Source of the DNA: Thermoanaerobaculia bacterium
GTDB taxonomy: Bacteria; Acidobacteriota; Thermoanaerobaculia; Multivoradales; JAHEKO01
DNA: 64,000 bases
Direction: 5' to 3'
Assembly (NCBI GenBank): GCA_947259925.1
Contig: CAMYOG010000026.1
Coordinates: 24,196-88,195, forward strand
The notes beneath the pieces were generated by a model, which saw only the letters and a program-made list of their open reading frames with translations, did not search any database and had not been told where the DNA came from. The translations under genes and the position numbers were made by a program. The first letter of the stretch is position 1, and every line of letters begins with the position of its first letter. This document shows positions 12,248 to 23,754 of the stretch, piece after piece.

Positions 12248-13024
12248 ATGCTCGAAGCGCTCGATCTCAGCAAGAGCCTGGCCAAATCGGTCTACAAGCA
12301 GCAGCTACCCGCCCTCCAGATGCGGCTGCATCGCCTCCAGAGAGCGTGCTGGGAGGCGAAGGTGGCGACGGTGGTCGTCTTCGAAGGCTGGGATGCCGCC
12401 GGCAAGGGCACCACGATCCGCAAGCTCACCCAGCGCCTGGAGCCACGTGGCTTCTCCCTCTACGCCATCCAGGAGCCGAGGACGTTCGAGCGGCAGCTGC
12501 CCTGGATGTGGCGCTTCTGGGTCAACCTGCCGGAATGGGGAGAGATCGCTATCTTCGACCGCAGCTGGTACGGCCGGGTCTTGATCGAGCGCGTCGAGGC
12601 TCTGACCGAGGAAGAGCACTGGCGCAAGGCCTACGGAGACATCGTCTCCTTCGAGCGGGGCCTGGCGGACGACCGGTACCTAATCATCAAGTTCTTCTTC
12701 CACATCTCCAGGGAGGAGCAAGAGGCGCGCTTCCAGCAGCTCGAGAGCGACCCAGCGACCGCCTGGCAGGTCGAGCCGGAGGACTGGGAGCATCACCGGA
12801 ACTACGACCAGTACCTGGTCGCCATCGAGGAGATGCTCGAGCGCTCGGAGAGCGAGTGGGGGCCGTGGACGCTGGTCGAGGCGACCGACCACAGATGGGC
12901 TCGGGTCAAGGTGTTCGAGAAGCTCATCCAGCGGATGGAGGCGGGGCTGACCCACCACGGCTTGGCCGTGCCCGAGCCGCTGGAGGCCGAGCTGTTCTCG
13001 AGCGAGGAGGAGGACGAGGATTAG
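12248..13024 (+). CDS. ppk2: Polyphosphate kinase 2 family protein (copy A, acidic tail)
   Basis: VFEGWDAAGKG, LEPRG, WRFW, FDRSWYGRVLIERV, KFFFHIS. Confidence 0.9.
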   Translation: MLEALDLSKSLAKSVYKQQLPALQMRLHRLQRACWEAKVATVVVFEGWDAAGKGTTIRKLTQRLEPRGFSLYAIQEPRTFERQLPWMWRFWVNLPEWGEIAIFDRSWYGRVLIERVEALTEEEHWRKAYGDIVSFERGLADDRYLIIKFFFHISREEQEARFQQLESDPATAWQVEPEDWEHHRNYDQYLVAIEEMLERSESEWGPWTLVEATDHRWARVKVFEKLIQRMEAGLTHHGLAVPEPLEAELFSSEEEDED

Positions 13025-13025
13025 G

Positions 13026-13739
13026 ATGCTCTCCACCGTCGATCTCACTCTCAACCTGGACCGCGCTGACTACAAGAAGCAGCTGCTCGAGTGTCAGCTG
13101 GAGCTACGCAAGCTGGCGCTCGAGCTCTACCAGCAGAAGCGTTCGCTGGTGGTGGTGGCCGAGGGTTGGGACGCCGCCGGCAAGGGGGGCTCGATCCGCC
13201 GGGTTACGGAGAAGATCGACCCGCGTGGATACCAGGTCTACGCGATCAGTGCCCCGGGAGCCGAGGGCAAGAGCCATCACTACCTCTGGCGCTTCTGGCG
13301 ACGGTTGAAGGCGCCGGTCGAAAAGCAGATTCTGATCTTCGACCGCTCCTGGTACGGCCGCGTCCTGGTCGAGCGGGTCGAGGGCTTCGCCACCGAAGAG
13401 GAGTGGCGGCGTGCCTACCGCGAAATCAACGAGTTCGAGCGCCAGCTGACCGATCATGGGATGACCCTGGTCAAGCTCTGGTATCACATCAGTAAGGACG
13501 AGCAGCTGCGCCGGTTCGAAGCCCGGAGAGAGACGCCCCACAAGGCCTGGAAGCTGACCGACGAAGATTGGCGCAATCGAGACAAGTGGGAAGCCTACGA
13601 GGCGGCGGTCGACGACATGCTGGTCAAGACCTCGACCCTGACCGCCCCCTGGACCGTGATCGAGGGGAACGACAAGCTCTGGGCTCGCATCAAGACCCAG
13701 AGGACGTTGATAGAGGCGCTCACAGAGGCTCTTGCGTGA
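13026..13739 (+). CDS. ppk2: Polyphosphate kinase 2 family protein (copy B; like the C-terminal half of polyP:AMP phosphotransferase)
   Basis: EGWDAAGKG, DPRGY, HYLWRFW, FDRSWYGRVLVERVEG, WKLTDEDWRNR, APWTVIEGNDK. Confidence 0.92.
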   Translation: MLSTVDLTLNLDRADYKKQLLECQLELRKLALELYQQKRSLVVVAEGWDAAGKGGSIRRVTEKIDPRGYQVYAISAPGAEGKSHHYLWRFWRRLKAPVEKQILIFDRSWYGRVLVERVEGFATEEEWRRAYREINEFERQLTDHGMTLVKLWYHISKDEQLRRFEARRETPHKAWKLTDEDWRNRDKWEAYEAAVDDMLVKTSTLTAPWTVIEGNDKLWARIKTQRTLIEALTEALA

Positions 13740-13841: not shown

Positions 13842-16322
13842 ATGACAGGCAAGCACGAAGCTCCCAGCACCAGCGACGACAAGGGCCGGCGGCGGCAGCT
13901 CATGGTGGTCTGCACCGGAGGCCTCCGGCAGCGCTTCCTGCGCGGAATGATCACCCGAGACCTGGTGCTGCGCGGCCTCGGTTTCGAGGACGCCTACGCC
14001 GTGGCGCGGGCGATTCGGGACGAGCTCTCAGACCGCGAGGAGGTGACGACCGACGAGATCCAGGATCTCATCTCCGCCCGGTTGGAGATGATGTTCGGCA
14101 GCGACATCCCGGATCGGCTCACCTTCCCCGGTCGGCCTCTCTCGGAGATCCGTGTCGTCTACGAGGGGCAGGAGCAGCCGTTCTCACGCGGCCTGCTCGC
14201 CCGCAGCGTCTATGCGGCGGGCATCGATCTGGACCGTGCCTACGGACTGCTGACCGAGCTCGAAGCCGAGCTTCGCCAGGAGGGGGTCGACCGGCTGGCC
14301 TCGGGCGAGATAGCCCGCCGGGTCGCCGATCTGTTGGAGCGCAAGGAGGGACCGGAAGCGGCTCGGCGATACCGTACCGTGCGCCGGATCGGTCGGCTGG
14401 CGAAGCCTCTGATCATCTACATCGGCGGTGCCAGCGGCACCGGCAAGTCGACCCTGGCGCTCGAGCTCGCACCGCTCCTCCGGATCTACCGGATCAACGC
14501 CACCGACACCATCCGCCAGGTCATGCGAATGGTCTTCACGCCGTCGATCTTGCCGGCTATTCACACCTCCAGCTTCGAGGTCGCGCACCTTCCCGAGCCC
14601 GCCTCCGGCCCGCCCGGCCCGACGAGGCCCGGTGATCCGGACTTCGGCTCCCGGGTCATTCAGAGCTACGAGGAGCAGACCATCCGGGTGATCGTCGGGA
14701 TCCGGGCGGTCGTCGAGCGCGCGATCGCCGAGAACCTGAGCCTGATCGTCGAAGGGGTGCATGTCCATCCGGGGCTGGTACCGTTCGCGGACTTGCAGGG
14801 CTCGGCCCACCAGGTCGCTCTGGTCCTCGCGACCCTGCACGAGGAGGACCACCGGGCGCGCTTCCTCGCCCGGTCGCGCGCCGGTGGCCGCAAGGCGGAG
14901 CGCTATCTAGAGAGCTTCGGGGCGATCCGCGAGATCCACGATCACATCCTGCAGGAGGCGGAGCGGCGTGAGGTGCCGCTCCTGGACAACCCGGCGGGAG
15001 AGTCCCCGGTCGGACCTACTCTGGGCCTGATCACCAGCATGCTGGAGCACACGACGCCCAGCCTCGGCCTGGGCGAATGGCCCGACCTGGCCCCCTCGGC
15101 CGCGACGCTGCTGCTGATCGTCGACGGGTTGGCCGATCGGCCGATCCGCGCACTCGGTGGACGGACGCCGCTGCAGGCCGCCGACACGCCGACGCTCGAC
15201 CGACTGGCGAAGGATGGCCAGTGCGGCCTGGCCGATCCGATCGCCCCGGGCGTGGTCGCCGACACCGCCGCGGGCTGTCTGGCACTCTTCGGACAGTCGC
15301 CGATGAGTCTCAAGCGGGGTCCGACCGAAGCGCTCGGAGCGAGCCTGCCGATGAGTCCCGGAGATGTCGCGCTGCGCGGCAACTTCGCCACCCTCGGCGA
15401 GAACGGGCAGATCATCGACCGCCGGGCCGGCCGGATCCGCGAAGGGGCCGCGGAACTGGCCGCAGCGATCGACCATCTGGCCCTGCCCGGCGGCCTCTCG
15501 CGCGAGGTCGAGGTCCGCGTGCGGGCGGGAACCGAGCACCGCCTGGGCGTCGTTCTCCGGGGCACCACCCTCTCACCCGCCATCCAGGGCAGCGACCCGG
15601 GCGAGGGAGCGCTGCCCAGCCCACCCCTGGTTCCGCGACCGGACGACCCCGATGACGCCCTGGCGGTCTACACCGCCAACGTCCTGGCGGTGTTCGAGCA
15701 GGAGGCTCGACGGGTGCTGGCGAATCACAAGATCAATCGCAAGCGCAAGAAGGACGGGCTCCCCCAGGCCAACGCCGTCCTGACCCGTGGTGCCGGGCGG
15801 ATCCACAGCCTGCTGCCGCTCGAGGAGGCGGGCGTTCCCCTACGGGTCTGCTGTATCAGCGGCGATCAGACCGTGTTGGGACTGGCCCGCTGGTCGGGAG
15901 CCAGGACCCGAACCACTCCGGAGATGACCGCCAACCTCGACACCGATCTGCGGCAGAAATTCGACATCGCCCGCGAGGAGCTCGAGCGGAGCGACCTGGT
16001 GCTGCTGCACGTCAAGGGAGCCGATATCGCCGCCCACGACCAGCGCCCCGACCTCAAGGCGTCGTTCATCGAGCAGATAGACAAGAACCTGAATCGCATG
16101 TTGAAGCGCGTCACCGGGCCGGTACGCATCGCGGTCGCGTCGGATCACGCCACCCTCTCGGAGAGCGGTCAGCACGCCGCCGATCCGCTGCCAGTCTTGA
16201 TCTGGGGAGAGGGCGTCGAGGCCGACGAGATCGAGACCTTCGACGAGCAGTCGGCCGGCGGCGGCAAGCTCGAGCGGTTTCCGCTCCAACTGCTGCTCAG
16301 CCGGCTCTACCGGCTCTCCTGA
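13842..16322 (+). CDS. Fusion: two ATP-cones + 2-phosphoglycerate kinase + ApgM-type (alkaline phosphatase superfamily) phosphoglycerate mutase
   Basis: ATP-cone-like repeats (FLRGMITRDL..AYAVA; PFSRGLLARS..AYGLL); 2PGK motifs GGASGTGKST, TDTIRQVMR, IHTSSF, VEGVH; ApgM motifs IVDGLADRP, TPLQAADTP, ALRGNFAT, DRRAGRI, HVKGADIAAHD, ASDHAT, HAADP. Confidence 0.85.
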   Translation: MTGKHEAPSTSDDKGRRRQLMVVCTGGLRQRFLRGMITRDLVLRGLGFEDAYAVARAIRDELSDREEVTTDEIQDLISARLEMMFGSDIPDRLTFPGRPLSEIRVVYEGQEQPFSRGLLARSVYAAGIDLDRAYGLLTELEAELRQEGVDRLASGEIARRVADLLERKEGPEAARRYRTVRRIGRLAKPLIIYIGGASGTGKSTLALELAPLLRIYRINATDTIRQVMRMVFTPSILPAIHTSSFEVAHLPEPASGPPGPTRPGDPDFGSRVIQSYEEQTIRVIVGIRAVVERAIAENLSLIVEGVHVHPGLVPFADLQGSAHQVALVLATLHEEDHRARFLARSRAGGRKAERYLESFGAIREIHDHILQEAERREVPLLDNPAGESPVGPTLGLITSMLEHTTPSLGLGEWPDLAPSAATLLLIVDGLADRPIRALGGRTPLQAADTPTLDRLAKDGQCGLADPIAPGVVADTAAGCLALFGQSPMSLKRGPTEALGASLPMSPGDVALRGNFATLGENGQIIDRRAGRIREGAAELAAAIDHLALPGGLSREVEVRVRAGTEHRLGVVLRGTTLSPAIQGSDPGEGALPSPPLVPRPDDPDDALAVYTANVLAVFEQEARRVLANHKINRKRKKDGLPQANAVLTRGAGRIHSLLPLEEAGVPLRVCCISGDQTVLGLARWSGARTRTTPEMTANLDTDLRQKFDIAREELERSDLVLLHVKGADIAAHDQRPDLKASFIEQIDKNLNRMLKRVTGPVRIAVASDHATLSESGQHAADPLPVLIWGEGVEADEIETFDEQSAGGGKLERFPLQLLLSRLYRLS

Positions 16323-16834: not shown

Positions 16835-16864
16835 CGATCACTGAGGCGGCGGGACCACCGCCGG

Positions 16865-16890
16865 TATACTAAAGCTTCCAATCGCGGAGG
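16865..16890 (+). promoter_or_regulatory. Putative -10 box (TATACT) and SD (GGAGG) for ppk1
   Basis: TATACT 16865-16870; GGAGG 16886-16890, 5 nt before CTG 16896. Confidence 0.5.
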
Positions 16891-16895
16891 TCACA

Positions 16896-19040
16896 CTGGC
16901 TACACTCGAAGATCGTTCGGCACCGCTCGAAGACCAGGCGCTCGACCTGGGCGACAAGGCGTACTACATCAATCGGGAGCTCAGCTGGCTCGCCTTCAAC
17001 GCGCGCGTTCTGGAGGAAGCCCTCGACGAGGAGAACCCACTCCTCGAGCGCGTCAAGTTCCTGTCGATCTTCAGCAGCAACCTCGACGAGTTCTTCATGA
17101 TCCGGGTGGCGGGGCTGCGCCGGCAGCTCGAGGTCGGCGCCCTCGAGGCACCTCCCGACGGCATGACGCCCGCCGAGCAGCTGGCGGCGATTCGCGAGAC
17201 CCTGATGCCGATGCTCAAGCAGCGGTTCCGCTGTTGGCAGGACGACCTCAAGCCGAAGCTCGAGGAGCAGGGCATCCGGGTGCTCGACTACTCCGACCTC
17301 AAGCGCAAGCAGCGCAAGCTGCTCCGGCGCCACTTCGAGCGCGAGATCTTTCCGGTCCTGACGCCGCTCGCCTTCGACCCCGGGCACCCGTTTCCCCACA
17401 TTTCGAACCTGAGCATCAACCTCGCGGTCGAGATCAACGATCCGGGTCACGGCGAGCGCTTCGCGCGGCTCAAGGTTCCGAACGCCCTCGACCGGCTCCT
17501 GCGCATCCCGAGTGAGGAGAAGGCCGGCCGCTACGAGCATCTCGGTCTGGTCGGACCGAAGAGCAGCCACTTCGTCTGGCTCGAGGAAGTGGTCGCGGCC
17601 AATCTGGACCTGCTGTTCCCCGGGCTCGAGATCGTCACCGCGCATCCGTTCCGCATCACCCGGGACGTCGATCTCGAGATCGAGGAGGACGAAGCGGCCG
17701 ATCTGATCACCACTATGCAGGACTTCGTGGCCCAACGGCACTTCGGCTCGGCGATCCGGCTCGAGGTGGACGCCGGGATGCCGGAGCGCATCCGCTCGAT
17801 TCTGAGTCGGAATCTGCGCCTGTCGCCCTACCAGGTCTACGAGGTGGAGGGCCCCCTCGGTCTTTCGGACATGATGGAGCTGACCAGCATCGATCGTCCG
17901 GAGCTGAAGGACCCGCCCTTCCTGCCGCAGTCGCCGCCCGAGCTCACGGGTGAAGAGAGCATCTTCTCGGTGCTGCGCGACCGCGACGTGCTCCTCTATC
18001 ACCCCTACGACAGCTTCGCTTCGGTGGTCGACCTGATCCGCAAGGCGGCTCGCGATCCGAACGTGGTCGCCATCAAGCAGACGCTCTATCGCACCGGCCC
18101 CAACTCACCGATCGTGAAGGCCCTGCGCGAAGCGCGTGAGCAGGGCAAGCAGGTCGCGGCCATGGTCGAGCTCAAGGCGCGGTTCGACGAGGAGAACAAC
18201 ATCGTCTGGGCTCGGGCTCTGGAAGAGGCTGGCGTCCACGTCGTCTACGGCCTGGTCGGCCTCAAGGTGCACTGCAAGATCTGCCTGGTCGTCCGGCGCG
18301 AGGCCCACGGCATCCAGAGCTACGTTCATCTCGGAACCGGCAACTACAATCCGGTCACGGCACGGCTCTACACCGACCTGGGCTACTTCACCACCGATCC
18401 GGAGCTCGCGGCCGACGTCTCCGACCTGTTCAACGCCCTGACCGGCTACTCGAAGAAGACCCACTATCGCAAGCTGCTGGTTTCACCCCACTCGATGCGC
18501 GAGCAGCTGCTCGAGCGCATCGATCGCGAGATCTCGGCCCATCTGGAGGACGGCCAGGGCCATCTCGCCTTCAAGATGAACTCCCTGGTCGACAAGCGCT
18601 GCATCCGAAAGCTCTACGAGGCGTCGCAAGCCGGCGTCAAGGTCGAGCTGCAGGTCCGTGGCATCTGCTGCCTGCAGCCGGGGGTCAGCGGCGTCAGCGA
18701 CAACATCCGGGTCACTTCTGTAGTCGGCCGGTTCCTCGAGCACTCCCGGATCTACTACTTCCGCAACGGCGGCGACGAGGAGATCCTCCTCGGCAGCGCC
18801 GACCTGATGCCGCGCAACCTCGGCGGCAGGGTCGAGCTCCTGTTCCCGGTGCGCGACCCCGAGCTCCTGGCGTCGCTGCGCGACGACATCCTGTTCCTGC
18901 ACCTGCGCGACAACGTCCGCTCCCGCGAGCTGCAAGCCGATGGCACCTACAAGCGGGTGCAGCCGGCCGGCGGCGAGGAAGTCGTCGACTCGCAGGCGTA
19001 CCGCCTGGAGCATCGCGGCTCCTGGCACCCGGAAGACTAG
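16896..19040 (+). CDS. ppk1: Polyphosphate kinase 1 (CTG start; ORF track start 17097 is internal)
   Basis: In-frame upstream YYINRELSWLAFNARVLEEA..LERVKFLSIFSSNLDEFFMIRVAGL; HPFPHISN, YHPYDSF, IKQTLYR, ELKARFDEENN, KVHCK, GTGNYN, GRFLEHSR, GSADLMPRNL. Confidence 0.95.
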   Translation: MATLEDRSAPLEDQALDLGDKAYYINRELSWLAFNARVLEEALDEENPLLERVKFLSIFSSNLDEFFMIRVAGLRRQLEVGALEAPPDGMTPAEQLAAIRETLMPMLKQRFRCWQDDLKPKLEEQGIRVLDYSDLKRKQRKLLRRHFEREIFPVLTPLAFDPGHPFPHISNLSINLAVEINDPGHGERFARLKVPNALDRLLRIPSEEKAGRYEHLGLVGPKSSHFVWLEEVVAANLDLLFPGLEIVTAHPFRITRDVDLEIEEDEAADLITTMQDFVAQRHFGSAIRLEVDAGMPERIRSILSRNLRLSPYQVYEVEGPLGLSDMMELTSIDRPELKDPPFLPQSPPELTGEESIFSVLRDRDVLLYHPYDSFASVVDLIRKAARDPNVVAIKQTLYRTGPNSPIVKALREAREQGKQVAAMVELKARFDEENNIVWARALEEAGVHVVYGLVGLKVHCKICLVVRREAHGIQSYVHLGTGNYNPVTARLYTDLGYFTTDPELAADVSDLFNALTGYSKKTHYRKLLVSPHSMREQLLERIDREISAHLEDGQGHLAFKMNSLVDKRCIRKLYEASQAGVKVELQVRGICCLQPGVSGVSDNIRVTSVVGRFLEHSRIYYFRNGGDEEILLGSADLMPRNLGGRVELLFPVRDPELLASLRDDILFLHLRDNVRSRELQADGTYKRVQPAGGEEVVDSQAYRLEHRGSWHPED

Positions 19041-19117
19041 CCTGGCCTTCTCACCAGCTTCCTACTGCGCCGCCGTATGTTGGCTCGCTACGAAAGCCGG
19101 CGAGAAGGTCAGGCTAG
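19037..19117. repeat. Short copy of the 2750-2931 palindromic element between convergent stops
   Basis: CTAGCCTGGCCTTCTCACCAGCTTCCTACTGCGC..GCCGGCGAGAAGGTCAGGCTAG; left arm matches reverse complement of the 2898-2930 arm at 32/33 nt. Confidence 0.8.
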
Positions 19118-19863
19118 CCCGCCGGTACCCGCTCGCGAATCTCGGCCCAGAGCTGCTCGTAGGCCTTGGCCGGCGCGCTCCAACTCGCGAATCGGTTCAC
19201 CGGCGCCCGGTTGAGGGCCATCTTCTCGACCAGACTCGAGTAGGGCACCGACGTCTGGAGAAACTCGGGCTGCACTCCGACCCCGGCGGTGATCTCCCGA
19301 TGGAGCTTCTTTCGACAGTCGACCATGCAGAAGAACGGCAGGATCCGCGCGCGGCGGAACCGCCGACGTTTGACCAGGTGGCGCTCGAGCCGGTCGAGCA
19401 TCCGAAGTGACAGGGTGGTCGGTATGGTCGGCACGAGCAGCGCGTCGGCGGCCACGAAGACACTCTCCGACAGCAGCGAGATGCTCGGGGCGCAGTCCAG
19501 AAAGACCTCGTCGTACTCGTCGTCGAGCGCCTGCAGAAGCGACGCCAGCCGCCGTGCCGGCTTTTTCATGTCGGCCAGCGCCAGGTCCAGCTTCCGGTAC
19601 GAGAAGTCGGCCGGAAGCAGGTCGAGGTCCTCGAAATCGGTACCTTTGATCACCGCTTCGAGCCTCCGCCCGCCTTCGAGCAGCTTGCGGGCCCCGCCCT
19701 TGACCTTCGGCTTGACGCGGAACATGAAAGTCGCCGCCCCCTGCGGGTCGAGGTCCCAGAGCAGGGTTCGGCGGCCCTCCCGCGCGGCGAGATAGGCGAG
19801 GTTGGCCGCCGACGACGTCTTACCGACGCCGCCCTTGATGTTGTAGAGCGCCAGAACCCTCAC
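19114..19863 (-). CDS. ParA/MinD-family ATPase (orphan, CHAD-associated)
   Basis: Deviant Walker A YNIKGGVGKT, WDLDPQG, LLPAD, FLDCAPS, VPTIPTTLS. Confidence 0.9.
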   Translation of the reverse strand: MRVLALYNIKGGVGKTSSAANLAYLAAREGRRTLLWDLDPQGAATFMFRVKPKVKGGARKLLEGGRRLEAVIKGTDFEDLDLLPADFSYRKLDLALADMKKPARRLASLLQALDDEYDEVFLDCAPSISLLSESVFVAADALLVPTIPTTLSLRMLDRLERHLVKRRRFRRARILPFFCMVDCRKKLHREITAGVGVQPEFLQTSVPYSSLVEKMALNRAPVNRFASWSAPAKAYEQLWAEIRERVPAG

Positions 19864-21443
19864 TCGCTCCCCCCGTCCACGAACATCACTCGGAATCGTT
19901 CGACGGTCTTGGCGGAGCTGAACTTCCCGAACGCTTCGGCGAACCTGCTGCGCTCTCGCGCCTCACCCTGTTCGAGCTCACCGACGAGCCGTCCCAGGGC
20001 CATCACCGCCGTGGTCCCTCCCGAGTCCGCGTCGATCAGCTCCTCGGCCAGGCCAACCAGCATCCGCTTCTGGATTCCGTAGTCGTTGAAGGCGCCCAGA
20101 TTGTCCTGCAGTCGCTTGAGTGCCCGCACCGGGCGATCGATCTCCTCCGGCGGGTAGAGCGTCCGGAACAGCTCGAGGGCGTAGCGGAGCTTCTTACAGT
20201 CGATCCGCAGACGATGAAGATCCTCCGGCGGACTGTCGTCGCTGATCTTCCGGCCCCGCTTCAGCACCTTGCGATGGGCTTTCCGGATCAGGCGGCTCGC
20301 AACCGTACCGATCGGCTCCCTGGCCGCCTCGGGTCGTTCTTCGTCGGCCGGCGGATGTTCCAGGAACGCGCGCCAGGCCTCGATCAGCTCTCGATACCGG
20401 GCGCTCTCGAGCTCTGTCGCCATCCGGCGCTGCGCGCCCTGCTGTCTCGCCTCCAAGAGCTCGCGCAATGGCTCCAGGTCCCGACGGACCGACTCGGCCA
20501 GCTTTGCCGTCGACCCCGGTAGCTCGAGCAGGTAGACGTCGAGATCACGAGTCGGACCGGTCAGCTTACCGAGCCACGAGAACTCCCGGCGGAGAGGCTC
20601 GATCCGTGCCTCCGGCCAGAGCTTCCTGGTCAGACTGAGCGCCGAGCGCGTACGTCGCACCGCTACCCGGAAGTCATGGAGAAATTCGCTGTCCAGGTCG
20701 GCCACAGTGCCGGCGTGGTTCTTTTCGATCGCCCCGAGCAGGGCCCTCAACACCTGGCGGACCGCCTCGTCGGCAGGTGTCGCGACATCGAGCGGTACGT
20801 TCGGCTTCGAAGTGTACTCACCCGCTCGCCCGAAACCCCCCAGGGCCGAGCCCGCCTCGAACTCGTCCGCGTCCCACTCCTCGAGGCCGAGCTCCTTTCC
20901 CAGGAACCGGACCAGCTTGCGGAAGTCGTCCGGGTAGCCCCGGACTCCTCTGACAATCAGGATCGGGGCGAGCGGCCTCCTCCGCTGCCGCGATCCCGGA
21001 GCCCGAGCGGCGGGAACTTCCGCGACCAGACGCACGACGGTCTTGCGGCGGCGGTCGAGAACCCGTAGAAGCCGTCCTTCGGCCTTCACCTCCACGATCG
21101 GCAGCAGGCGACGCATCGTGATGACCGACGCGAGCTTCTGCCGGAAGGGGCTCGCCGGCAGGTCGGCCGCAAACCCGATCGTCTGGAGGTCGTCGGAGCG
21201 GAGATCCAGGCGCTCGGCCCGCGCCCGGCCTTCCGACTGCCATCTCAACTGAGGCCCGCTGGCCGAGGGCTGCAGCCAGAGTCGCGACTTCCTACGCCAC
21301 AGGCGCCAGTCGAAGGTGTCGAAGTAGGTTCGCTGCCGCACCGCCTTCTCGCTCTCGAGGGCGTACCGATCGCCGAGCGCCTCGACCACACGGTCGAGAC
21401 CGGCTTCGTCGGCGACGGTGAAGGCGACCTCGGTCTGGACCAT
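19860..21443 (-). CDS. CHAD-domain polyphosphate-binding protein with N-terminal CYTH-like region
   Basis: TYFDTFDWRL; CHAD motifs EFLHDFRVAVRRTRS, TGPTRDLDV, LHRLRIDCKKLRYALE, LQDNLGAFND. Confidence 0.9.
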   Translation of the reverse strand: MVQTEVAFTVADEAGLDRVVEALGDRYALESEKAVRQRTYFDTFDWRLWRRKSRLWLQPSASGPQLRWQSEGRARAERLDLRSDDLQTIGFAADLPASPFRQKLASVITMRRLLPIVEVKAEGRLLRVLDRRRKTVVRLVAEVPAARAPGSRQRRRPLAPILIVRGVRGYPDDFRKLVRFLGKELGLEEWDADEFEAGSALGGFGRAGEYTSKPNVPLDVATPADEAVRQVLRALLGAIEKNHAGTVADLDSEFLHDFRVAVRRTRSALSLTRKLWPEARIEPLRREFSWLGKLTGPTRDLDVYLLELPGSTAKLAESVRRDLEPLRELLEARQQGAQRRMATELESARYRELIEAWRAFLEHPPADEERPEAAREPIGTVASRLIRKAHRKVLKRGRKISDDSPPEDLHRLRIDCKKLRYALELFRTLYPPEEIDRPVRALKRLQDNLGAFNDYGIQKRMLVGLAEELIDADSGGTTAVMALGRLVGELEQGEARERSRFAEAFGKFSSAKTVERFRVMFVDGGSE

Positions 21444-21470
21444 GGCGCGCCAGTATAGCCACCGGCACCG

Positions 21471-22169
21471 TCATTCCTCAGCCCAGTCCGTCACAAGCAG
21501 ACAGACGGGCACCCATAGCCAGCAGGACCGGCCGGTCTCGGCGTCGGTAGCTCCTATGGAGAAGGCTCCGGCGCCGAATCTGCAGCCCGCCGGGTGGAGC
21601 TCGGCGGCGAGCGCCTCGGCAAGCTGCACCCGGACCTCCTGCGGGCAGGCCGGCGCGCCGTCACTGGCATCGCCCAACGCCGCCACCGTACCCGGGGCCG
21701 GCCACGGCTGCACGGTCAGGACCGCCCGGACGGCGGTCCGAGCGAGCGTCCTCACGCCGGCCGGATGCTCCAGCTGGCGCAGGCCGACCGTCGAGATCTC
21801 GTAGCTCGCTCTGGTCCACTCGCCTGCCGGCTCGCAGAGGGAGCACGGTTCTCGAGCGATCTCGACCGGCGCCTCGACCTGAGCCCGACTCGAGCGCGTC
21901 CAGTCCTCCAGGCGAGTCAGTCCGAACGAGAGGTCCAGTTCCTCGGGCTCGGCGCCCGCGAGCAGCCGGGCAGCGGCGAGAGCGAGTCCGGACTCGGCGG
22001 CATTCAACGCTTGCAGGGTCTCGTGATCGACGGTTCCGAGCCGCCTTTCGGACAACGCCATCTCCGAGATCACGATACCGAGACCGGTCAAGACCAGGAT
22101 CACCGCGAGCGCCAACAGATAGGCGCTGCCTCGCTGCGTCGAGCCCCCCGGCCTGCGCACCGTGCTCAT
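21471..22169 (-). CDS. PilX-like minor pilin / type IV pilus assembly protein
   Basis: QRGSAYLLALAVILVLTGLG, ALNAAESGL; ATGA overlap with upstream gene. Confidence 0.7.
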   Translation of the reverse strand: MSTVRRPGGSTQRGSAYLLALAVILVLTGLGIVISEMALSERRLGTVDHETLQALNAAESGLALAAARLLAGAEPEELDLSFGLTRLEDWTRSSRAQVEAPVEIAREPCSLCEPAGEWTRASYEISTVGLRQLEHPAGVRTLARTAVRAVLTVQPWPAPGTVAALGDASDGAPACPQEVRVQLAEALAAELHPAGCRFGAGAFSIGATDAETGRSCWLWVPVCLLVTDWAEE

Positions 22170-23269
22170 CGACTCCGGACCGCGATCTGGGCGCTCGACC
22201 GCGCCCGTAGGAAGGAGCGGCCCACCGACGTGGCGGCACCCACCTCTCCGTACCACCTGTCCTCGATGCGAGCCAGCGGCGGTGAGACGTAGTGGCGCAG
22301 CGGGCGCGCGCCCCGCAGCAGAATCGACAGACCTACGAGCTCGAGCGGACCCTCCGGCGGAACCGGCGCCACCGGCAGCTCGGGACCACCGAAGTGCCAG
22401 CGGCGAGCCCCGGGATCGTCCGGTTGCGAAAAGGCCAGCGCGACCTGGAGGTCGAGCGCGTTGTCGACCAGCGGCACTCCGGCGCGGGGAGCCTCGGCGT
22501 GCGGCCGTTCCGACCCCGGATAGAACCGCGAACGAGCGAGCTGATGGCGCGCCCAACCACCGGGCTGCCGCTCATCGCTGCGCACGAAGTACCGCATTTC
22601 TACGAGGACGCCGACGTAGCGCATCCAGTCCGAGCCGCGCGCACGAGTACACGCCGCGCTCAGCCTCCGGTAGCCGTCGGCCAACGCGGTACCACTCGTC
22701 CGGTATTCGACGGCCAGCTCCGTCACCTCACCCGAGACCCCACGCCCCCTCGCTACAGCGCTCACCAGCTCGACGATCGAGCAGCTCGCCGACCCTCGCG
22801 CGCCGGTCACCAGCAGAGCTTCTCCGGGAACGTCTCCGGCGGCGGCTAGCAGGCCCTCGAGCGGCTGCTCCGCGCCTCCCTCCGTGCGGCGCGAGAGGAT
22901 CAGCGTCTCGGGCGCGAGCGCCGAGATCTCGAGCATCGAGCCCTCGACCACCCCACGCACGATCAGGACGTCGGTCTCCGGAACCACGGCCGGGCTCCGG
23001 GGGTCACCGATACGCTCTCCGGGAGCGGCATTGTTGCGAACCTCGATCGCCAGGCTGGCAGGGAGGCCACCCCACCCTGCCACGCGACAGGCGCGGGTCA
23101 GCGCATGCCGGGCGATGCGGAGCGACTGTTCCAGGTCTACGGTGAGCGACTGCCGCCGGGTGACCCCGGAGTGGGTCTCGAAGAGCACCAGCAGTCCGAC
23201 CAGCAGACTGGTCGCCAGTGCCATCGCGACCATCAGCTCCAGCAGCGAGAAGCCCCTAGCGCGTCTCAT
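22166..23269 (-). CDS. PilW-like minor pilin
   Basis: Prepilin motif RGFSLLELMVAM; ATGA overlap with upstream gene. Confidence 0.75.
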   Translation of the reverse strand: MRRARGFSLLELMVAMALATSLLVGLLVLFETHSGVTRRQSLTVDLEQSLRIARHALTRACRVAGWGGLPASLAIEVRNNAAPGERIGDPRSPAVVPETDVLIVRGVVEGSMLEISALAPETLILSRRTEGGAEQPLEGLLAAAGDVPGEALLVTGARGSASCSIVELVSAVARGRGVSGEVTELAVEYRTSGTALADGYRRLSAACTRARGSDWMRYVGVLVEMRYFVRSDERQPGGWARHQLARSRFYPGSERPHAEAPRAGVPLVDNALDLQVALAFSQPDDPGARRWHFGGPELPVAPVPPEGPLELVGLSILLRGARPLRHYVSPPLARIEDRWYGEVGAATSVGRSFLRARSSAQIAVRSR

Positions 23270-23754
23270 CGTCGGATCCACTCCAGGCGTACCAGGTGTG
23301 CGATCGGGCGCTCTCCGAGGCCCGTCGACACGCTGATCTCGACCGCGCGCAGACCGATCCCGGGGATCTCGTCATCGGTCGGCACCGCTTCGGCGGCGCC
23401 GAGCCACCCGTCGTCGACGGCGCTCAGCGGGTAGTATCGAACACTCGTCCGGCGGAGCCAGCCGGCCGGGGAGGACGGCTCCGGCGGGCCCTCTGCCCAG
23501 CGCCCATCTCCGAGCGCACGGTGCTCGATCCGCGGAGCTCCAGCGAAGCCCTCCAGTCCGTTCTGTGCGTGAACCGCCGCTCGGGAGCGGAGCGCCCCGG
23601 TCCGAACGTCTCGGACAGCCCGCGCGAACAGGGCGGCCGTGACCAGGAGCACCACCCCGAGAATCGTCGCAGCGAGCAGTAGCTCGAGCAGCGAGAAGCC
23701 GCTCGCTCTCGGGGCGGCCCGGCGCGCGTCCGAAGCTATCCAGGCAGTAGTCAT
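23266..23754 (-). CDS. PilV-like minor pilin
   Basis: Prepilin motif SGFSLLELLLA followed by hydrophobic helix. Confidence 0.72.
   Translation of the reverse strand: MTTAWIASDARRAAPRASGFSLLELLLAATILGVVLLVTAALFARAVRDVRTGALRSRAAVHAQNGLEGFAGAPRIEHRALGDGRWAEGPPEPSSPAGWLRRTSVRYYPLSAVDDGWLGAAEAVPTDDEIPGIGLRAVEISVSTGLGERPIAHLVRLEWIRR

Follow-up and report, generated by a model that had tools for sequence, protein, structure and literature searches.

Here we describe two adjoining genes, encoding a protein with a TTM-like and a CHAD domain and a ParA-like ATPase, as a strong candidate for the machinery that organises polyphosphate (polyP) storage granules. The genes lie in a 64,000-nucleotide stretch of contig CAMYOG010000026.1 (positions 24,196 to 88,195 of the forward strand) from a Thermoanaerobaculia bacterium of the Acidobacteriota (assembly GCA_947259925.1); this whole stretch is called the window below, and positions are counted from its first letter. 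Conservation of the pair across phyla, polyP-binding residues retained in the CHAD domain and a predicted complex between the two products together carry the proposal. The best reading of this evidence, whose chances we put slightly above even, is that the pair acts spatially on polyP granules.

A conserved gene pair

The gene for the TTM-like plus CHAD protein (P0001, a putative polyP-granule adaptor of 527 amino acids by open reading frame (ORF) and translation) occupies positions 19860..21443 of the minus strand, and the gene for the ParA-like ATPase (P0002, 249 amino acids, with AAA_31 and CbiA matches) follows on the same strand at 19114..19863. The bases at 19860-19863, tcac on the plus strand, give GTGA in the coding direction, and the TGA stop of P0001 thus overlaps the GTG start of P0002, an arrangement that would couple their translation. 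Homologues start at the corresponding residue (M/V-R-V/I..YNIKGGVGKT), which supports the GTG as start codon, and the 4-bp overlap is more than chance because it recurs in 46 of the 59 full-length orthologous pairs; among the others, the genes overlap by 1 bp (3 pairs) or 13 bp (1 pair), are separated by a gap of 1-49 bp (8 pairs) or include a broken gene (1 pair, locus L045). Downstream, the ATPase gene converges on ppk1, which runs on the plus strand and ends at 19040, leaving a gap of 73 bp. There is no parB in the window: a whole-genome search with ParB_N (PF02195) returned two matches, on contigs C15 and C30, each adjoining another ParA, and none on C26, the contig of the window. In all, five ParA-like genes and one CHAD gene are present in the source genome, an assembly of 60 contigs with 92% completeness. 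A first-pass annotation of the window had pointed out the overlapping stop and start codons, the absence of parB and the convergence on ppk1, and all three observations hold.

That annotation had further asked whether a CHAD-linked clade of ParA exists, and such a clade is readily found. Relatives of the ATPase were collected by a scan over one genome per species, which yielded at least 593, and the best 80 of these at least 593 were analysed; counts of loci given below refer to this set. A P0001 homologue lies directly upstream of the ATPase gene, on the same strand, in 64 of the 80 loci, which belong to Pseudomonadota (27), Actinomycetota (23), Acidobacteriota (7), unplaced bins (4) and Gemmatimonadota, Chloroflexota and Candidatus Dormiibacterota (1 each), six named phyla in all. 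Non-pathogenic organisms that carry the module include Methylotuvimicrobium buryatense 5G (L019), Sedimenticola selenatireducens (L078), Nitrosomonas marina (L079) and, outside the set of 80, Paracoccus aestuarii DSM 19484 (L113). The 64 partners comprise 59 that form a single ORF with a start codon, 2 that lack a start by the rule used and 3 that are split over frames. Pairwise distances of the ATPase and its partner co-vary (Mantel r 0.83, reached in 0 of 999 permutations), which fits inheritance as a unit and which shared ancestry alone could also give. In a separate sample of 301 Acidobacteriota genomes, the ATPase was present in 16; a match to the P0001-family alignment (A2, 59 rows) was found in 16 of these 16 and was adjacent in 13, and all 12 genomes with an A2 match of at least 375 bits carry the ATPase.

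Nothing else travels with the two genes to a comparable extent. All-against-all ORF clustering of the best 80 of at least 593 loci gave no third conserved gene, none beyond the pair exceeding 12 loci. Another three large clusters proved to be shadow ORFs overlapping the two genes, and lineage-specific neighbours (an alpha/beta hydrolase, PepN and MDMPI), considered as functional partners, look unrelated and were set aside. A ppk1 gene lies within 6 kb of the ATPase gene in 8 of the 80 loci, in varying orientation, and pstA/pstB-like genes occur in clusters present in 8-10 of the 80. We conclude that the two genes form a functional unit that has been conserved.

A CHAD domain joined to a degenerate TTM-like domain

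The C-terminal part of P0001 (about residues 206-527; positions 19863..20828 of the minus strand) is assigned to CHAD by structure matches and by PF05235, which matches residues 231-462 at E 2.3e-62 (211.4 bits against a cut-off of 25.6). An AlphaFold model of P0001 made with alignment A2 has a predicted local distance difference test score (pLDDT) of 94.4 and a predicted TM-score (pTM) of 0.91. The C-terminal ~320 residues superpose on the CHAD structures of Chlorobium tepidum (6qv7, 6qva and 3e0s; target TM 0.92-0.95, 36-38% identity), whose fold of two four-helix bundles they share, and the A2 profile matches 3e0s and 6qv7 at E 1.5e-88. According to the available text of PMC6537752, polyP binding by the C. 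tepidum domain (CtCHAD) is lowered by mutation of H253, R256, R260, R296 and R418/Y419. These residues align with H256, R259, R263, R299, R420 and Y421 of P0001, each of which is invariant in 59/59 family sequences. It is because residues defined by mutagenesis in CtCHAD are invariant throughout the family that we infer, on good foundation, that the P0001 CHAD domain binds polyP, as the first-pass annotation had supposed.

The N-terminal ~205 residues (about 1-205; positions 20829..21443 of the minus strand) have a TTM/CYTH tunnel fold in the AlphaFold model. Foldseek matches this region (E 1e-5 to 1e-3; target TM 0.5-0.7) to structures of TTM proteins, ThTPase and class IV cyclases, and the full-length match is E. 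coli YgiF (5a60). The assignment is made by fold comparison, since the sequence search of A2 against the Protein Data Bank covered the CHAD part only, and Pfam CYTH gave no match in P0001 at E <= 0.01. ExExK is the N-terminal catalytic and metal motif of TTM/CYTH enzymes; searched for as E.E.K within the first 40 residues, it was found in 0 of the 59 sequences of the family, and in the first strand of the domain only the aromatic residue at position 8 is conserved across the 59-row alignment. The TTM-like domain looks, from these sequences, like a catalytically degenerate pseudo-enzyme. This domain of ~205 amino acids is a point that the first-pass annotation had missed.

A ParA-like ATPase with intact catalytic motifs

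P0002 is a P-loop ATPase of the ParA-MinD type (Pfam AAA_31, E 2.6e-32; CbiA, E 1.9e-14), for which no NCBIfam equivalog model reached its cut-off. It has a deviant Walker A motif, IKGGVGKT, at residues 9-16, in which K10 and K15 are both invariant (each in 58/58 and in 81/81 sequences), and D37 and D39 of the Walker A'/switch motif (WDLDPQ) and D123 of Walker B (LDCAP) are invariant too; an alignment with M. xanthus ParA and Thermus Soj places these three aspartates in the corresponding motifs. The structural model (pLDDT 87.4) is closest to Soj/ParA (TM 0.78-0.83, compared with 0.74-0.77 to McdA), and MinD, FleN and BcsQ are likewise more distant in fold than Soj/ParA. Among solved structures, the best profile match is M. 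xanthus ParA 8RAY (E 3e-35), followed by Thermus Soj (3.7e-26), MinD (~1e-15) and McdA 6noo (2.2e-12). In a tree of 81 family members and the four other ParAs of the source genome, the ATPase family forms one group on a branch of 3.83, with a Shimodaira-Hasegawa-like approximate likelihood ratio test (SH-aLRT) value of 100.

At one locus from a metagenome bin (L072, 5086-6825) the ATPase frame extends to ~580 amino acids, which could reflect a fusion with the downstream gene or a lost stop codon; this sequence was excluded from the ATPase alignment A3.

A predicted interface between the two proteins

Modelled as a 1:1 complex, the ATPase and P0001 gave interaction prediction scores from aligned errors (ipSAE) of 0.73, 0.72 and 0.73, where the best of three controls gave 0.00; 58 of 80 solved complexes and 2 of 110 mismatched pairs reach the mark applied to this score, counts that are rough for the present case since custom alignments were used. 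The runs share at least 83% of their contacts, and the partner has a pLDDT of 86. On the side of the ATPase the modelled contacts involve residues 28-29, 49-50, 72-76, 81 and 219, and on the side of P0001 they involve residues 61-62, 127, 132-135 and 167-170, all of which lie in the TTM-like domain; CHAD is uninvolved.

These positions were cross-checked in sequences outside the complex model. Among the linked partners, K134 is found in 59/59, T135 in 54/59, R/K168 in 58/59, G169 in 59/59 and Y170 in 54/59. Among 13 full-length TTM-CHAD homologues from ATPase-negative Acidobacteriota, by comparison, K134 is found in 0/13, Y170 in 0/13, R168 in 1/13 and T135 in 3/13. On the opposite surface, R49 and R219 are present in 81/81 members of the ATPase family and D76 and D81 in 80/81 each, and all four are kept in 13/13 of the members whose gene is unlinked; R49, G74 and R219 are absent from all four ParA paralogues of the source genome, of which a few have D76 or D81. 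A real interface would be expected to show this pattern, of contact surfaces kept invariant only in the presence of both partners, and we consider it likely that the ATPase and the TTM-CHAD protein bind each other.

The first-pass annotation had cast CHAD as an adaptor in contact with ParA and had named structure prediction as one check of a ParA-CHAD interaction. Binding by the CHAD-containing protein is indeed what the model predicts, whereas the contact itself is assigned to the TTM-like domain and not to CHAD.

How the pair may act on polyP granules

In the mechanism that we propose, the two genes would form a translationally coupled module dedicated to polyP. The 527-amino-acid protein would bind polyP granules via its CHAD domain, as its conserved binding residues suggest, and would bind the ParA-like ATPase via its catalytically dead TTM-like domain, as the complex model predicts. 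The ATPase, which keeps all the catalytic motifs of the ParA/MinD dimerisation switches, could then drive an ATP-dependent ParA/adaptor cycle that distributes, separates or partitions the granules, by a logic analogous to that of McdAB for carboxysomes. Candidate surfaces for this cycling would be nucleoid DNA bound in a non-canonical way, or polyP itself.

Such a module would be a concrete and widely distributed two-protein candidate for the placement and inheritance of polyP granules. It offers a specific predicted interface (K134, T135, R168 and Y170 of the adaptor; R49, D76, D81 and R219 of the ATPase), it poses a biochemical fork between DNA and polyP as the matrix of the ATPase, and it suggests what the TTM-CHAD 'phosins', long without explanation, may do and why their TTM domain is dead.

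Several findings weigh against a spatial role, or against parts of the mechanism just described. The two genes are not adjacent in 13 of 77 informative loci (in three of the 16 loci that lack an adjoining partner, the contig ends less than 310 bp upstream of the ParA gene), and as the 80 loci are the closest of at least 593, the linked fraction may fall further out. The 13 unlinked ATPases themselves fall within the clade, most of them in a group of Methylobacter and Crenothrix, and no alternative partner is common to their loci, Methylobacter having an HDOD-REC-GGDEF gene upstream. It speaks for the pairing, on the other hand, that all 5 of the genomes of this kind that were tested encode a full-length partner elsewhere (E <= 1e-167), with no ParA beside it. 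Two ATPase-positive Acidobacteriota (G243 and G067) have a best A2 match that is CHAD-only. Furthermore, 11 of the 13 unlinked TTM-CHAD homologues from Acidobacteriota also lack ExExK (L098-L108, the motif being kept in L096 and L097), so that binding to ParA does not by itself account for the dead TTM domain; to judge from these sequences, the loss of TTM catalysis is older or broader than the link to ParA. The N-terminus of the P0001 family is variable and not basic across the 59 rows. ParB, McdB and MinE act through a basic N-terminal peptide, according to the available text of PMC10241942 and bioRxiv 10.1101/2025.03.14.642875, so that stimulation of the ATPase is not implied for a partner that lacks one. 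The complex score, finally, is a measure of model confidence, obtained for a 1:1 complex and not for the ATP dimer, with custom alignments.

To these points is added the state of the surface that would meet DNA. The R238E variant of M. xanthus ParA is without non-specific DNA (nsDNA) binding, as described in the accessible part of bioRxiv 10.1101/2025.03.14.642875. With the numbering of 8ray_B anchored by D60A at chain position 41, R238 is R219 of the chain (PRNVRLSE) and aligns with position 211 of P0002. Across 81 family members this position is occupied by D (39), L (15), E (7), I (7), V (5) and others, and by K or R in 0/81; an acidic residue, Asp or Glu, thus stands at the place of the nsDNA-binding arginine in 46 of 81. 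The arginine is kept in 4/4 of the ordinary ParAs of the same genome. A canonical nucleoid matrix for the ATPase is not supported by its sequence, and this evidence speaks against the nucleoid-bound ParA of the first-pass annotation in that canonical mode.

It is possible, with the weight of probability against it, that the same complex forms and that the matrix of the ATPase is the surface of the polyP granule and not the nucleoid, its ATP cycle controlling the number, size or fusion of granules (anti-coarsening) or the access of PPK/PPX-type enzymes. The loss of the DNA-binding arginine from all 81 members would accord with this, as would a family-specific basic loop at residues 49-66, in which R49 (58/58), K/R51 (57/58), K/R53 (57/58), K/R55 (58/58) and K/R59 (52/58) form the pattern R49-x-K/R-P-K/R-V-K-G-G-x-K/R. 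Other conserved basic residues are R66, K73, K100-K101 and R183-R184-K185, the median net charge of the family is +7, and the model leaves residues 57-65 flexible (pLDDT < 50). This Lys/Arg-rich loop would be the best candidate for a polyanion-binding element. We know of no ParA/MinD member, however, with a matrix that is neither DNA nor membrane. The available text of the ParA/MinD review PMC11407121 likewise lists none, and as other ParAs bind DNA by different residues, the loss of one arginine is not decisive. A bolder statement, which we think somewhat less probable again, is that this would be the first ParA-type ATPase with an inorganic polymer as its working surface, in which the DNA-binding arginine was lost and a Lys/Arg loop gained and which, together with a granule-anchored adaptor bearing a dead TTM domain, spends ATP on controlling how many polyP granules there are, how large they grow and how far apart they lie. 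If true, the ATPase and its adaptor would actively keep a membraneless inorganic condensate from coarsening.

More doubtful is a role for the pair in sensing or regulating polyP or phosphate status without a spatial function; a polyP-bound TTM-CHAD protein might, for instance, sequester or release the ATPase, which would control another target in the way that FleN/FlhG or Soj control transcription or replication factors. Regulatory ParA/MinD ATPases have solved structures, with FleN-FleQ and Soj among the fold matches; pho/pst genes adjoin the pair in some lineages; and the predicted contact is domain-to-domain, unlike that of peptide-stimulated transport systems. Against such a role, the best 80 of at least 593 loci show no third gene or target conserved alongside the pair, and the module is found in very different regulatory backgrounds in six phyla.

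Relatives on plasmids bear on a last alternative. A relative of the ATPase at E <= 1e-30 was found in 11 of 72,556 plasmid records; all 11 are below 50% identity, and the replicons are mostly large secondary ones. Both of the two inspected (H7 and H3, from Paracoccus) have a CHAD gene directly upstream. The order of genes on these plasmids or chromids (L113, 3299-6651; L114, 3288-7249) is a 62-amino-acid ORF, the CHAD protein, the ATPase, a stand-alone CYTH and a NUDIX gene, and the variant of the module in P. marcusii adjoins pstB-phoU-phoB; the Paracoccus loci are a phosphate context and not a partition locus. That the ATPase is an ordinary orphan DNA-partition ParA (of a chromosome, plasmid or integrated element) merely standing beside a CHAD gene, as its Soj/ParA fold and motifs and the label 'chromosome partitioning protein' borne by relatives in source records might suggest, is very improbable and is already contradicted by the conservation data: neither here nor as a conserved feature of the 80 loci is there a gene for ParB or a centromere-binding protein, the pairing with TTM-CHAD is conserved and overlapping, the DNA-binding arginine is missing, and the plasmid relatives are as few as described.

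Relation to known systems

The closest functional parallel to a granule-positioning role is McdA/McdB. Both systems have a small ParA-type ATPase, an adjacent gene for a cargo-binding partner and no ParB (PMC13081873 and PMC10241942, in the text available from each), and both would join adaptor and ATPase logic to a storage or metabolic cargo that is coated with protein, is not DNA and lies on or in the nucleoid. They differ in that the ATPase of the module is nearer in sequence to Soj/ParA than to McdA; that its partner is a folded TTM-like plus CHAD protein of 527 amino acids, where McdB is small and disordered; that the predicted contact is a folded domain, where McdB uses a charged N-terminal peptide (PMC10241942, available text); and that the cargo would be an inorganic polymer, unlike the carboxysome. 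The first-pass annotation had called the pair McdAB-like, which remains apt for an ATPase with an adjacent partner in 64 of 80 loci and a predicted binding to it, and inapt for the partner's N-terminus, which offers no basic peptide like that of McdB or ParB. In S. elongatus, by the account in the available text of PMC13081873, polyP spacing is independent of McdAB.

The chromosomal ParA/Soj proteins (M. xanthus 8RAY; Thermus Soj 1WCV/2BEK) are the best matches of the ATPase in both sequence and fold, and it keeps their deviant Walker A with the signature lysine, Walker A' and Walker B. It departs from ParABS in the absence of ParB, in the replacement of the nsDNA-binding arginine and in the long branch that separates it from the ParAs of its own genome. 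The equivalents of the ParB-peptide pocket (by approximate mapping, residues ~94, 128-133 and 165-170) are not among the residues of the ATPase predicted to touch the partner.

P0001 shares its two-domain TTM-CHAD architecture with the 'phosins' E. coli YgiF (5A60) and C. tepidum Q8KE09, and the latter has nearly the same length, layout and residue numbering; CtCHAD and the CHAD domain of P0001 are 37% identical and superpose at TM 0.92. YgiF-type TTM domains are active triphosphatases with ExExK. The P0001 family differs from YgiF in that ExExK occurs in 0 of 59 members and in having a clade-specific surface, K134/T135 plus R168-G169-Y170, that is predicted to bind ParA. The crystallised CtCHAD comprises residues 208-522 of Q8KE09 (PMC6537752, available text), and CHAD proteins localise to polyP granules, according to the accessible parts of PMC6537752 and PMC9239181, which cite Tumlirsch & Jendrossek 2017. 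No ATPase partner of phosins is described in the literature that we searched.

The same gene pair has been seen before within one genus. A folD-ppk-parA-CHAD cluster is conserved within Acidithiobacillus (PMC6416229, 2019; PMC10892726, 2024), where the pair likewise adjoins ppk1; in the available text of these papers the view is limited to that genus, ParA is assigned solely to the partitioning of plasmids or chromosomes, the CYTH-CHAD protein is interpreted as an adenylate cyclase or copper-related factor, and neither an interaction of ParA with CHAD nor granule positioning is proposed. In the literature searched, to the exclusion of supplementary files, we found no proposal of a ParA system for polyP, and the terms 'polyphosphate' and 'CHAD' are absent from the ParA/MinD review PMC11407121 and from a study of seven ATPases (PMC10241942).

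How polyP granules come to be positioned has been described as an open matter by others. A 2026 study from a ParA/MinD laboratory calls the mechanism undefined in E. coli, Caulobacter and S. elongatus (PMC13081873/PMC13556221, available text) and finds polyP positioning in S. elongatus to be independent of its only ParA-family ATPase (PMC13081873), and a 2025 review, in its accessible text, gives the mechanism as unknown and names no ATPase dedicated to polyP (PMC11894788). An effect on the even spacing of granules is reported, by the available text of PMC9239181, for one factor only, AlgP, a histone H1-like protein of Pseudomonas aeruginosa. AlgP belongs to an unrelated sequence class and is not an ATPase, and no AlgP-like gene was noticed beside the module in the window.

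Neighbouring genes and features of the window

The surroundings of the pair are rich in polyP genes, with ppk1 and two ppk2 genes within the window. Three plus-strand genes precede ppk1 on its 5' side. The first two are tandem PPK2-family genes (12248-13024 and 13026-13739) placed 1 bp apart, whose single-domain products of 258 and 237 amino acids match PF03976 at E 1.4e-69 and 9.3e-89 and align, below cut-off, to the C-terminal half of the two-domain NCBIfam model for polyphosphate:AMP phosphotransferase. The third (13842-16322), between ppk2 and ppk1, encodes an 826-amino-acid fusion of an ATP-cone, a 2-phosphoglycerate-kinase-like part and a part like the cofactor-independent phosphoglycerate mutase apgM, a combination that is unusual in a bacterium.

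The coding region of ppk1 is given here as 16896..19040 of the plus strand, where the listed ORF begins at ATG 17097. The conserved N-domain of its product (YINRELSWLAFNARVLEEA...) runs in frame upstream of 17097, the first ATG/GTG/TTG, back to a TGA at 16842. Between 16842 and 17097 there is no canonical start codon; a CTG at 16896 stands 5 nt after a GGAGG (16886-16890) and is plausible as a rare start of ppk1, the alternative being a sequencing error.

Upstream of the CHAD gene, minus-strand ORFs at 21471-23754 carry N_methyl and PilX_N motifs and resemble type IV pilins; they are probably a separate operon and look unrelated to the pair. A promoter scan of 18900-21800 gave 0 sigma-70-like sites, and four terminator-like matches in the same interval were set aside, all being intragenic and on the wrong strand. 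An inverted repeat at 19037..19117 (no strand assigned) spans the entire convergent gap between ppk1 and the ATPase gene, including both stop codons. It would fold as a near-perfect hairpin of ~80 nt with an energy of -52.7 kcal/mol (z -5.5, equalled in 0 of 200 shuffles), lacks a T-run and hence was not listed by the terminator scan, and is probably a two-way terminator hairpin.

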